Numbered from the stretch's first letter, positions 20,233 through 27,284 are shown. The stretch is DNA of 32,000 bases from Gammaproteobacteria bacterium (GCA_965279305.1 OZ257143.1:1500001-1532000); one strand, 5' to 3'. Made by a program: numbers and translations. Notes: generated from the letters alone by a model not told the origin.

Positions 20233-23136
20233 TTATTTGGGTTGTGCAGATATTTTTAGTAGGGGAGCAGGAGCGCTTTTTACTGAGAATATCCCCATCG
20301 AACTTAATAAATCACCAACAAATTTCTTTGCCATGGACAATAATTTAGGATTATCAAAATTAGACAAGGTTGTTTTTGCAAGTAGTGGAGGTAATTCTAA
20401 TCTTATATTCTCTCTTTCAGATAAAGTCTCTTTCATAGAAACTGCCAACTCATTTTTTCTTTTCTGACCCTCTGAAACAAATTTTTCTTCTTTTAACTTA
20501 CTTGCTCTTATACGTTCGAGTGTATTATTGTGCTCTGCGAGTCTTTGGGCAAGATCAGAGTCTATAGTTTGGTTGAGCACTTTGATCTGTGCATCCCCTT
20601 TTCTTACTTCATCCTCATCTCTCTTTAGAGCAGTTTCAATAGGTGGAATAAGATTACTTCTAATATTAGCAATCTTTTTCTGATTTTCAGGATGCTTACT
20701 TTTTTCCACCCATACTTCTACTTTGGGATAAAGATCATTTTTATCAAAAAAACCGCGCTTATACTTACCACGATAGGTTCCTTTAGCAGGGTCAGATTCT
20801 TTATGCTTATATTTTCCGGTATAATCGCTCGCTCTTACTTCGACGAAAGGTATTCCCTTGTAAAGGTAAACAGTATCATTTCCCAAACGTTTTTGTGTAT
20901 CAGTTTTGTTAGTTATTTCCTGATAAAAAACAGGAGTAGTTAATTCTAGATTACTTAATTCTTTACGATAAACAGCTATTTTTTCATTATTTGCTTTTAC
21001 TCTAGAACGTATAGGAGTTAAAATTGTTTCAATTTTAGTGATTTCACTAAAATCTGCAATATAACAAGAATCTCTTTTGGAAGGAGGCGCTGCTTCTATT
21101 CTAGATAGCTCTGCCCCATACTGATTAATTAATGCTTGCTTTGCTATAATATCAGTTTCGATAGTAGAGACAAGCGTTGAATCTTTCGTATATGTTTCAA
21201 AAAGACTTATATAATAGTTTAATCTCTCAAGCAAATAGGATTCAACATTTTTTATATGCTGCGGGACTTGAGAGTCTAGTATCAGTGGCACTGTATCAGA
21301 AGAATTATTTAATGGCTTTTTCTTTAAATCCATCCAGTCTAATATAAATAACATAGACAAGAAAAACAGCTGCTTGTTTTCTAGTTCGCTATAACCTACG
21401 ATAGTAACAAAAGATTTTAATTGTTCAATTTTTAATTGCCTTACTTTAAAGAGACGGCTTAATTCACTACTCACTTCATTTTTTCTTGAAGTAGTAGATT
21501 CTTTTCGGCTGGTTGCTTGTGTTAATTCTCTTTCAGCTTGATTAACGGATTGCATATGACGCAATAAATTATCTTCATGCGCGGTTCGTAATTTCTGTGA
21601 GAGTTGAGAGATAACATCTCCCAGCCTTGAAATTTCTCTTTGATTTGATGCTAAAGAAGATTCATTATTAGGAATAAGTGTAGACCTCAACTGAGTAATC
21701 CTATCTCTATTAGTTGGTAAATGGCGCTTTTCTACATAGACTCTTACCGTGGGGTACTGATAATTACTATCCCAATATCCTCGTTTATATTTGCCCCTAT
21801 AAACTCCGCCTGATCTATTGTACTCTTTAATTTTGTATTCTCCGGAATAGCCAGAAGCAGATATTTCTAAAAAAGGAACATCGTTATAATCATAAATCGT
21901 ATCATCACCAAAAAATCCATCTATATTGTAAGAACTTCTTAAATCTTTATAATAAACGCGATCAGAAACATCTAAATTATCTCGCTCATGGCGGTCAGCG
22001 GCCAACTGAGTTTCTAATTTTTTAACCACTTCTCGTGTGGCGGATCTTTTGCTTTCGCTGTCTGCAATTTGACTATGAATTGAAGAAAGCGATGGATCTT
22101 TCATGGTAGGAGGATTTGATTTAAGTTCCTGAAATTTACTATTTAATTTTGTTATTTCAGTTTCGATCTCAGAAAGGCTCTTATTGAGCAGCAAATATTC
22201 TTGACTCAATGTTTTGGCTTGCTTAACTCCATCATCGTATTCTTGAAGATTATGAAGCACAATTTCCTCAAAATCTCTTCGTGACTGTTCAAGAGAAGAA
22301 AAGGTTAATGCTTCTTTAGTGATAGGTTGAGTTGCAGAAAATTTCCCTAACAAAAGATCTCTGGATTCCCCCTCATCAAATACATCTATAAAAATTACAT
22401 TTGTTTCACAATTTTTAATTAATCCTTTTAATATTTGAATACCTTTCTTGGTCCTTTCTATTTTTTGGGTAATATCAATATCATTAATTGAAATTTTATC
22501 CTGATTATTTTGAGAAGCGATCATTCTTTCTAAAGCAGCTTCTTCTTCGCTTAAAATATCAGACAATTTTTTTACAAAATAATTTTTTGTAACTCCACGA
22601 TTAAGCCTATTCAAAATTAAAAATAAAGAAGAAGAATCCCTATCAGGTGTTCGCATTACTTGAGCTAATGACGCGATTAAGGAGCGAAAAGACTCTGATC
22701 TTTCTGACATAATACTGGCATAGTCAACTACAATAGCTAGTGCACGTATATCTGTAGCCTTCTGCAAGACTGCATCTAAACAAAAAGAAATACCGACTTG
22801 AATTTCAGGGCCTCTATTATCGGATAAACCAGGACAATCACAAAGGCTGAACCTCGTTCTGTTTTTAGCAGAGGAGGGCAATGAAAATGCCTTCGGATAC
22901 GAAGTAACAGAAGCTAAACTATCAGCAGATGCTGCTGGTAAATCAGCAAAAGATTTTACAGGTTGAGCAAGCCCCCCATCTCCTATGGTAAACTTTTCTC
23001 CCAACAAGTAATTTACTGTTGTACTTTTTCCTGCTCCCGTATGGCCTAACAAAAGCACCTGAGAATCATTGAATCCGAAAAGATTCGAATTATAAAAAGG
23101 CTCAAGAAATGTTACCAACTTATTTAAATCAAACAC
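20233..23136 (-). CDS. P-loop GTPase-like / coiled-coil protein, paralog 3 of 3. It carries an internally duplicated C-terminal module.
   Basis: 967-codon ORF starting at GTG 23136, with GAGGA 6 nt upstream. It starts 17 nt after the upstream gene's stop codon. G1 is GHTGAGKST at residue 31, switch I is 'SVTSYP', G3 is 'LCDCPGLSDNR', and further conserved blocks are 'AIVVDY', 'LILNRLN' and 'DVFDEGESR'. Two copies of the '..PF.E..AS.Y.G.YK.KE......YRGKYKRG..D.N..YP.V.V.VEK...P.N...I...RS.LIP' module are present. The tail is KSAPAPLLKISAQPK. Confidence 0.8.
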   Translation of the reverse strand: MFDLNKLVTFLEPFYNSNLFGFNDSQVLLLGHTGAGKSTTVNYLLGEKFTIGDGGLAQPVKSFADLPAASADSLASVTSYPKAFSLPSSAKNRTRFSLCDCPGLSDNRGPEIQVGISFCLDAVLQKATDIRALAIVVDYASIMSERSESFRSLIASLAQVMRTPDRDSSSLFLILNRLNRGVTKNYFVKKLSDILSEEEAALERMIASQNNQDKISINDIDITQKIERTKKGIQILKGLIKNCETNVIFIDVFDEGESRDLLLGKFSATQPITKEALTFSSLEQSRRDFEEIVLHNLQEYDDGVKQAKTLSQEYLLLNKSLSEIETEITKLNSKFQELKSNPPTMKDPSLSSIHSQIADSESKRSATREVVKKLETQLAADRHERDNLDVSDRVYYKDLRSSYNIDGFFGDDTIYDYNDVPFLEISASGYSGEYKIKEYNRSGGVYRGKYKRGYWDSNYQYPTVRVYVEKRHLPTNRDRITQLRSTLIPNNESSLASNQREISRLGDVISQLSQKLRTAHEDNLLRHMQSVNQAERELTQATSRKESTTSRKNEVSSELSRLFKVRQLKIEQLKSFVTIVGYSELENKQLFFLSMLFILDWMDLKKKPLNNSSDTVPLILDSQVPQHIKNVESYLLERLNYYISLFETYTKDSTLVSTIETDIIAKQALINQYGAELSRIEAAPPSKRDSCYIADFSEITKIETILTPIRSRVKANNEKIAVYRKELSNLELTTPVFYQEITNKTDTQKRLGNDTVYLYKGIPFVEVRASDYTGKYKHKESDPAKGTYRGKYKRGFFDKNDLYPKVEVWVEKSKHPENQKKIANIRSNLIPPIETALKRDEDEVRKGDAQIKVLNQTIDSDLAQRLAEHNNTLERIRASKLKEEKFVSEGQKRKNELAVSMKETLSERENIRLELPPLLAKTTLSNFDNPKLLSMAKKFVGDLLSSMGIFSVKSAPAPLLKISAQPK

Positions 23137-27284: not shown

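Follow-up and report, generated by a model that had tools for sequence, protein, structure and literature searches.

A 32,000-nucleotide (nt) stretch of DNA from a Gammaproteobacteria bacterium (GCA_965279305.1 OZ257143.1:1500001-1532000), which we refer to as "the window", contains at positions 20,233-27,284 an operon of three paralogous genes, here named A, B and C, that encode large proteins with an N-terminal GTPase (G) domain. Sequence profiles and a predicted structure assign this domain to the TRAFAC P-loop GTPases, in the AIG1/GIMAP (septin-like) class, and sequence comparison indicates that the three proteins are anciently diverged paralogues in an uncharacterised family of that class. 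The family has a characteristic architecture and is repeatedly fused to domains whose known substrates are eukaryotic. The reading that we favour, with about even confidence, is that A, B and C are host-directed, nucleotide-driven, membrane-associated proteins that form a heteromeric scaffold or tether.

The three genes lie in tandem on the minus strand (Table 1), with 12 nt between the stop codon of A and the start of B and 17 nt between the stop of B and the start of C. A preliminary description of the window had given exactly these coordinates and had credited each gene with a strong Shine-Dalgarno sequence of its own, and each start codon does have its own ribosome-binding site about 6-7 nt ahead. 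A consensus scan for promoter and terminator signals inside the operon found none above the number expected by chance, which, together with the short gaps, is why we treat A, B and C as a single operon. Hexamers resembling a promoter are present in the AT-rich region upstream of A (27285-27733), at a count not beyond chance. Pairwise BLASTP scores of 149-186 bits, with 24-34% amino acid identity, identify the three proteins as true paralogues, as had been proposed. An Rfam scan of the window returned no RNA match, and a repeat search of the window found no flanking repeats; what it did pick up was the DNA similarity left between the paralogues in their P-loop and CDCPG codons.

The G domains of A, B and C share a set of motifs in strictly corresponding positions. 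The P-loop (Walker A, GxxxxGK[ST]) occupies residues 31-38 in all three proteins, with its first Gly at residue 31. Also invariant in the three-way alignment are the switch-I threonine T78, the G3 box C93-D94-C95-P96-G97, D100-N101-R102, E105, D132-Y133, R140 and a second box, D-[VI]-F-D-x-G-x-S-R, at the G5 position (D259..F261-D262..G264..S266-R267). The P-loop at residue 31, the switch-I threonine, the hydrophobic strand ending in D-Y and the second box had all been picked out by eye, and the alignment bears them out. Conservation across the wider family was counted over 173 aligned G domains. G31, G36 and K37 are kept in 166 of 166 domains, T78 in 167 of 167, D94 in 166 of 167 and G97 in 167 of 167, so that the switch-I threonine and the DxxG of G3 are both present; R102 is found in 139 and R/K140 in 150. 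The CDCPG box had been called invariant, which is correct for A, B and C and too strong for the family: of about 167 domains, 130 have C93 and 120 have C95, with D94 and G97 essentially invariant. CDCPG is thus the usual form of G3 in the whole family and not a peculiarity of this operon. An equation of R140 with the conserved-box arginine of GIMAPs was considered and dropped, the HMM and HHalign alignments placing R140 five residues off.

The G4 motif, which normally reads the base, is degenerate. A has SKAD, which fits [NT]KxD, while B has NKVP and C has NRLN, so that the aspartate is absent from B and C. Across the family the motif reads [TNS]-K-x-[P/D/E/N/S], and in about 163 members the aspartate position is occupied by proline in 61 and by aspartate in 31. 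Guanine specificity, which had already been doubted, is not to be assumed, because so few members retain this aspartate. D262 of the G5-position box is far better conserved (119 of 139 non-gap positions), raising the possibility that it shares in base recognition and might stand in for the missing aspartate of G4.

Several comparisons place the G domain in the AIG1/GIMAP class. The generic Pfam model MMR_HSR1 exceeds its cut-off for A and C, and Pfam ABC and AAA models match the three proteins at the P-loop only. The Pfam AIG1 model (PF04548, gathering threshold 27 bits) scores B at 18.5 bits and C at 20.5 bits, both below threshold, and does not list A; of 40 long family members, it matches just one at E<=1e-4. 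When PDB sequences were searched with a profile, the best matches from G1 to G3 were septin-9 and septin-3 (E 2e-4, covering query residues 27-105 only), IRGB10, Toc33 and GIMAP4. When the family profile was aligned with the AIG1-domain profile by HHalign, the two matched over 132 columns, from G1 to G4, with a probability of 98.7% and E 4.3e-16, at about 27% identity to AIG1 proteins. The alignment includes the region of the AIG1 box, which lies between G3 and G4 after a hydrophobic strand, but the motif is different, GR[FY]TxEE in AIG1 proteins and V-I-D-Y-x-S-L-x-x-x-R-G here.

Structure prediction led to the same class. An AlphaFold2 (AF2) model of A was built from a 21-sequence alignment, with a mean predicted local distance difference test score (pLDDT) of 81 and a predicted template modelling score (pTM) of 0.60; within the G domain pLDDT was mostly 85-97. 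With the full model as query, the top PDB match in Foldseek was GIMAP2 (2xtp; E 6e-4, probability 1.00, TM-score 0.55 on the target). Matches at the level of the domain were all GTPases (GIMAP2, EF-Tu, HflX, Drp1, SR-beta and IRGQ), and in a Foldseek search of BFVD the top viral match was a Pithovirus AIG1 family protein. Pfam, PDB profiles, HHalign and Foldseek thus agree with the earlier suggestion that the domain belongs on the AIG1/GIMAP/Toc/septin side of the TRAFAC GTPases, and the profile-profile and structure searches keep it within the P-loop GTPases.

We file A, B and C as relatives of the AIG1 proteins and not as members, because they do not reach the Pfam AIG1 threshold and because G3, the conserved box and all the accessory domains are different. 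The two groups have in common GxxxxGKS, the switch-I threonine, the G3 context D-x-P-G-[FIL]-x-D-[TN] and helices after the G domain, and some members of each have a hydrophobic membrane anchor (putative in the family of A, B and C). In contrast to GIMAPs, A, B and C read C-D-C-P-G in place of D-T-P-G and VIDYxSLxxxRG in place of GRFTxEE, and in them an additional helical insert separates G4 from the last strand. Their length is 680-970 amino acids (aa), which includes a helical hairpin, long coiled coils and a beta domain that is novel, and they are encoded in a bacterial operon of three paralogues.

The region beyond the G domain had been described as several hundred residues of coiled coil. 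Long helices are indeed predicted there, and a conserved beta module was overlooked, of which C has two copies. In the model of A, two long helices form a hairpin whose joining turn, SG.xF.GE.DP, is conserved in A-type members; a six-stranded beta domain with a hydrophobic loop follows, and then further long helices and a Pro/Ala-rich tail. The module common to A, B and C spans about 95 aa with the pattern F.Y.G.PF...G.Y..Y....V.V.VEKR..P.N, and occurs in 111 of 162 family members analysed. The second copy in C is 41% identical to the first, and C thus contains an internal duplication of a unit made of helix, beta domain and helix. AF2 modelled the first module of C at pLDDT 86 and pTM 0.71, and a Foldseek search of the PDB with this model found no significant match (best E 0.83, probability 0.21). 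Loops inside the beta domain that reach a Kyte-Doolittle value of at least 1.6 over 19 aa were found in 19 of the 111 members with the module, nearly all of them A-type; loops of the B type are weakly hydrophobic and rich in Gly and Ala, and C lacks the insert.

No N-terminal signal peptide is present in A, B or C. Their Pro/Ala-rich C-termini are shared with their neighbours, as had been noted earlier: short tails rich in Pro and Ala (and Gly and Ser) are present on nearly all the non-housekeeping open reading frames (ORFs) of the window, for example ...AAAPPPQSGAAPRA, ...SAAPAPARVEKGNGAGPPQ and ...APPPYPGLAPAPAPAEIPTPA. They are not found on the window's housekeeping proteins MacB, the ABC ATPase and FadE. 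Similar tails occur on orthologues of A from other metagenomes. The shared tail may be a C-terminal export signal.

A word-based search made A, B and C look nearly unique. An exhaustive HMMER search of 1.84 billion representative sequences with a profile of the G domain (286 positions) yielded 7,491 matches, and 671 representative clusters at E<=1e-30, a family size that had been overlooked. Most of the 671 span the entire profile, in proteins of 500-2,100 aa. The closest orthologues of A and B are P0034 (42% identity over 670 aa) and P0044 (39% identity over 615 aa). For C the nearest sequence is P0062, with 32% identity over 578 aa, and it bears ankyrin repeats. The A, B and C lineages are old, because each has separate full-length orthologues in other assemblies.

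Tandem arrangement is a recurrent property of the family. Metagenome contigs were scanned for the codons of CDCPGFxD[NT], and 80 loci, mostly on short contigs, were returned. A family G domain is encoded at 53 of these loci, 13 of which have two or more adjacent family genes. An A-type gene lies directly 5' of another family gene on contigs L001 and L002, and L001, a Logan contig, carries three family genes consecutively. The first of these three (L001 6060-8885, 941 aa) has a second G domain at its C-terminus, with a degenerate G3 (VECPGLNEK), which is a recent copy of the G domain of the next gene (58% identity). A conserved A-B-C triad was sought elsewhere and not upheld: in L001 and L002 clear orthology is limited to the A lineage, whose partners there are not clearly B or C.

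Members of the family are combined with domains characteristic of proteins that act in eukaryotic cells. Of 40 long members examined, ankyrin repeats are found in 14, a U-box in 13, an OTU protease domain in four and a patatin phospholipase domain in two, and some have RING or Sel1 domains. Directly downstream of the A-type gene on L002 is a 948-aa member (P0042; 3097-5943) with a C-terminal PARP catalytic domain, at 35 bits over the Pfam cut-off. The family genes are bacterial, because one U-box-bearing member (L088) lies amid the ordinary housekeeping genes Mdh, HemN, OmpA, TrmB, RsgA and DsbA. Annotated relatives on plasmids were found only in Candidatus (Ca.) Megaira, Ca. Megaera polyxenophila and Neochlamydia, all of them intracellular symbionts of protists. 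Two alphaproteobacterial metagenome-assembled genomes (MAGs) among the matches listed (L003 7587-9959 and L004 7632-9929) encode a protein with a hydrophobic N-terminal leader, a U-box and a distantly related GTPase whose G3 reads FDLPGFNDTDG. The U-box-GTPase gene of L004 adjoins a relaxase-like gene and a reverse-transcriptase-like ORF.

The operon also occupies a strain-variable site. A Logan contig (L008) is 95.5% identical to window positions 28230-31999, including the FadE gene, and synteny with it ends at about 27770. The 152-aa ORF upstream of the operon (27734-28192, plus strand) matches the C-terminal 145 aa of a protein of 537 aa encoded at L008 3447-5060, and by this alignment it is a 5'-truncated remnant of that gene. 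The loss of synteny and the truncated ORF together place the GTPase operon at a strain-variable junction.

According to the reading that we favour, the bacterium would export A, B and C into a eukaryotic host cell. Once there, they would bind nucleotide and, in the manner of GIMAPs and septins, form pairs or oligomers by way of their G domains and helices, with the hydrophobic loop of A as the main attachment to host membrane. Together they would amount to a heteromeric scaffold or tether, regulated by nucleotide, on the membrane that surrounds the bacterium. In other members of the family, this chassis would deliver the U-box, OTU, patatin, PARP or ankyrin parts to a location of this kind. 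The possibility of translocated effectors, raised in the preliminary description, is supported indirectly by the family's fusions with U-box, ankyrin, OTU, patatin and PARP domains and by a neighbourhood of effector-like genes. We infer a host-directed role also from the relatives in symbionts of protists, the absence of a signal peptide, the shared tails and the strain-variable site.

Our analysis shows the operon structure, the paralogy, the GTPase fold with its class, and the architecture and domain fusions of the family; the steps that we infer are the export of A, B and C into a host, their binding to membrane, their hetero-oligomerisation and the identity of their nucleotide. Several points weigh against this reading. 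The argument for hetero-oligomerisation consists of co-transcription and likeness to septins and GIMAPs. Pfam finds no eukaryote-like domain in A, B or C themselves, and their Pro/Ala tails match no described secretion signal that could be checked here. The loop of A reaches only a moderate hydrophobicity (1.63), and its pLDDT in the model is below 50. B and C, lacking the aspartate of G4, may bind another nucleotide or may be regulatory pseudo-enzymes.

A more ambitious form of the same idea, which we think unlikely, is that the three proteins are an injected heteromeric machine akin to septins and atlastins. The loop of A would insert in host membrane, the catalytically divergent B and C would co-assemble with it through G interfaces and coiled coils, and nucleotide cycles would tether, shape or fuse the membranes of the vacuole; the beta domain would then be a new fold for recognising membrane or lipid. 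Like A, B and C, septins belong to the septin-like GTPase class, and in septins several paralogues that differ in catalytic competence come together on membranes by means of G interfaces and coiled coils. The septin G4, AKAD, is by contrast not conserved in the family of A, B and C, and the accessory domains are different; no septin unique element turned up in A, B or C, although no search aimed at it was made. With mitofusin and atlastin, A shares the linear order of GTPase, helices, hydrophobic hairpin-like segment and long helices. This is a likeness of topology only, with no match in sequence or fold past the generic G domain, and the hydrophobic segment of A differs in lying within the beta domain and in being much weaker than a true transmembrane hairpin. 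If correct, this would be the first effector system to bring its own multi-subunit large-GTPase membrane machine instead of hijacking that of the host, and the eukaryotic-looking relatives of the family would suggest that protists and their symbionts have exchanged genes.

A machine intrinsic to the bacterium, resembling DLP1/DLP2, DynA, LeoABC or IniA and serving repair, vesiculation or division of its own inner membrane and not the host, seems to us quite improbable. Such systems likewise consist of co-transcribed paralogous large GTPases, and their linear order of G domain, long helices, a hydrophobic element contacting the membrane (putative in A) and further helices is like that of A. Ranks 2-4 in the Foldseek search of the PDB were the Campylobacter dynamin-like protein pair (5owv/5oxf) and IniA (6j73), with probabilities of 0.72-0.89 (0.89 for 5owv_C, 0.80 for 6j73_B), but the TM-scores of these alignments are merely 0.15-0.18, with root-mean-square deviations of 39-60 Å. 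The G domain is of the AIG1/GIMAP type and not of the dynamin type: the Pfam Dynamin_N model matches only at the P-loop (residues ~27-50), with E 0.014-0.73. PADLOC found no significant defence-system match, its best being LeoBC (16 bits, E 1.1e-3). The likeness to LeoABC and DynA that had been drawn is accordingly weaker than it seemed, although the tandem operon of paralogous GTPases on which it was built is real. The known dynamin-like systems act on the bacterium's own membrane and have neither the beta domain nor eukaryote-directed fusions, whereas this family has been fused repeatedly to U-box, OTU, ankyrin and PARP domains. The operon is also missing from the same position in a strain whose flanking sequence is 95% identical, which argues against a core cell function.

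A comparably low probability attaches to the proposal that A, B and C are translocated mimics or decoys of host immunity GTPases (GIMAPs, IRG proteins or septin cages), which would block defence by heterotypic pairing of G domains instead of building their own scaffold, with B and C as poison subunits altered in catalysis or specificity. The class and fold of the G domain are those of GIMAPs, the PDB sequence matches include septin-9, septin-3, IRGB10 and GIMAP4, and the degenerate G4 of B and C would suit such subunits; some distant members (P0013 on L092; P0080, with EF-hand and leucine-rich repeat (LRR) domains) look eukaryotic and would allow an origin from host genes. Against it stand the low identity to AIG1 proteins in the profile alignment and the family's own conserved accessory domains, which host GIMAPs lack. 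Very improbable is an NTPase-centred conflict system (anti-phage or abortive infection), in which the GTPases would do the sensing or switching and the helical and beta regions would serve as effectors or in oligomerisation. In its favour are the toxin-antitoxin genes near relatives (HicAB in L001, VapC in the Megaira plasmid), the strain-variable site beside a truncated gene and the frequency of multi-paralogue NTPase operons in defence islands. Against it are the lack of a significant PADLOC match (JetC and LmuB match in the coiled-coil region only) and of any nuclease, TIR, protease or pore-type effector domain in A, B or C, and fusion partners that are eukaryote-directed throughout the family.

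It had been supposed that no characterised family has this combination of features. That remains so, yet GIMAP-type GTPase domains in predicted effectors of endosymbionts were already noted in silico in comparative-genomics papers of 2012 (PMC3417536, Aravind; PMC3482391, Zhang/Aravind). These describe GIMAP-like domains within large multidomain proteins of Ca. Amoebophilus asiaticus, a Bacteroidetes symbiont, and propose that the endosymbiont proteins remodel host membrane (PMC3417536, PMC3482391). What they have in common with the present proposal is the idea of GIMAP-like domains that occur in intracellular bacteria of protists and are joined to OTU, U-box, lipase and repeat domains; compared by description, the fixed layout, paralogue lineages and tandem operons of A, B and C are not in those papers. 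Our literature search found nothing relevant on the CDCPG signature and no description of the fixed architecture, the beta domain or the paralogue operons, and on bacterial GIMAP or paraseptin effectors it found the 2012 papers only and no experimental work. A 2026 preprint on a Legionellales symbiont was considered and set aside, as it concerns Rac1-like GTPases and not this family. What was known before, then, is the occurrence of GIMAP-type GTPases in endosymbiont effectors; what is new here is the architecture and the paralogue operon.

The GTPases of the GIMAP/AIG1, septin and IRG families are central to membrane organisation and cell-autonomous immunity in eukaryotes. To our knowledge no bacterial counterpart of them has been studied experimentally. 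The operon gives access to an unnamed family that comprises at least 671 sequence clusters and is found chiefly in bacteria living within protists. In this family the GTPase region recurrently forms the N-terminal chassis to which ubiquitin ligase, deubiquitinase, phospholipase or ADP-ribosyltransferase domains are attached. Should the proteins prove to be translocated, it becomes testable how symbionts place enzymes on host membranes, whether GIMAP-like GTPases work as heteromeric machines, and whether eukaryotic GIMAPs and this family share an origin by gene transfer. The beta domain, which has no recognisable fold relative, merits a solved structure.

Table 1. Coordinates of the operon, its motifs and domains, and the tailed ORFs in the window
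Feature	Position	Strand	Remarks
Putative promoter region, AT-rich, upstream of operon	27285-27733 (~450 nt)	minus	GC 0.31 over 27001-28000
Ribosome-binding site of A	27292-27298	minus	AAGGAGA
Gene A	25245-27284	minus	679 aa; A-type paralogue: G domain, helical hairpin, beta domain with hydrophobic loop, long helices, Pro/Ala tail
G domain of A (aa 1-290)	26415-27284	minus	includes helical insert aa 185-250 (AF2)
P-loop of A	27171-27194	minus	GKTGAGKS
G3 box of A	26994-27008	minus	CDCPG
G4 motif of A	26748-26759	minus	SKAD
G5-position box of A	26484-26510	minus	DVFDDGQSR
Two long helices of A (aa 292-348, 360-401)	26082-26411	minus	AF2; conserved joining turn in A-type members
Beta domain of A (aa 404-521)	25722-26075	minus	six strands (AF2)
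Hydrophobic loop in beta domain of A (aa 411-465)	25890-26054	minus	low-confidence; peak Kyte-Doolittle 1.63 over 19 aa
C-terminal long helices of A (aa 527-620, 622-631, 646-659)	25308-25706	minus	followed by Pro/Ala-rich tail ...KPLPPAPLAAKPRAA
Ribosome-binding site of B	25240-25245	minus	AGGAGA
Gene B	23154-25232	minus	692 aa
P-loop of B	25119-25142	minus	GHTGAGKS
CDCPG of B	24948-24962	minus	
Beta domain of B (aa ~395-505)	23718-24050	minus	Gly/Ala-rich loop
Ribosome-binding site of C	23143-23147	minus	GAGGA
Gene C	20233-23136	minus	967 aa; GTG start
P-loop of C	23023-23046	minus	GHTGAGKS
CDCPG of C	22828-22842	minus	
First beta domain of C (aa ~387-480)	21697-21978	minus	short loop, no hydrophobic insert
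Second beta domain of C (aa ~730-822)	20671-20949	minus	41% identical to first copy
ORFs with Pro/Ala-rich tails	2511-4208, 8535-10658, 20233-27284	minus	
ORFs with Pro/Ala-rich tails	14790-18620, 27734-28192, 28375-29229	plus	

Some distant GTPases of the CDCPG type look eukaryotic (P0013 on L092, P0055 and P0080). The 50.7-kb ENA contig L092 has fragmented gene calls with pieces of Lectin_C and TIG domains, and P0080 carries EF-hand, LRR and ankyrin domains. These sequences hint that the wider family is common to protists or animals and their symbionts. A 1744-aa relative on the Ca. Megaira plasmid (CP084577.1 61547-66781; L091 4185-9419) is annotated as a "50S ribosome-binding GTPase". The label arises because Pfam names the family only through the generic MMR_HSR1 model, and it is very likely misleading for this GTPase family.

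Elsewhere in the window, the ORF at 8535-10658 (minus strand, 707 aa) encodes a protein that begins with a U-box (E 1e-19) and has ankyrin repeats in two blocks, an architecture typical of eukaryote-like E3 ligase effectors. Two proteins have tetratricopeptide repeats and a Pro/Ala-rich C-terminus: one of 1276 aa with about 18 repeats (14790-18620, plus) and one of 565 aa (2511-4208, minus). The ORFs at 47-2467 (plus), 4330-5745 (plus) and 5752-7998 (minus) had no significant Pfam match and no match to PDB sequences. A fourth, at 18678-20156 (plus), had only a sub-threshold Pfam match to THOC7, the PDB search having covered the other three; it encodes a highly charged coiled-coil protein and is convergent with gene C. 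A 247-aa ORF with a TTG start (10810-11553, minus) overlaps the start of the ABC ATPase gene (11411-12079, plus); probably this ORF is spurious or has been given the wrong start. The window also has ordinary genes for MacB and FadE. FadE places the AT-rich organism in the Gammaproteobacteria, close to uncultured lineages and Legionellales/Kangiellaceae: its best named match is a MAG protein at 65% identity, and homologues in Kangiella and Legionellales are about 50% identical.

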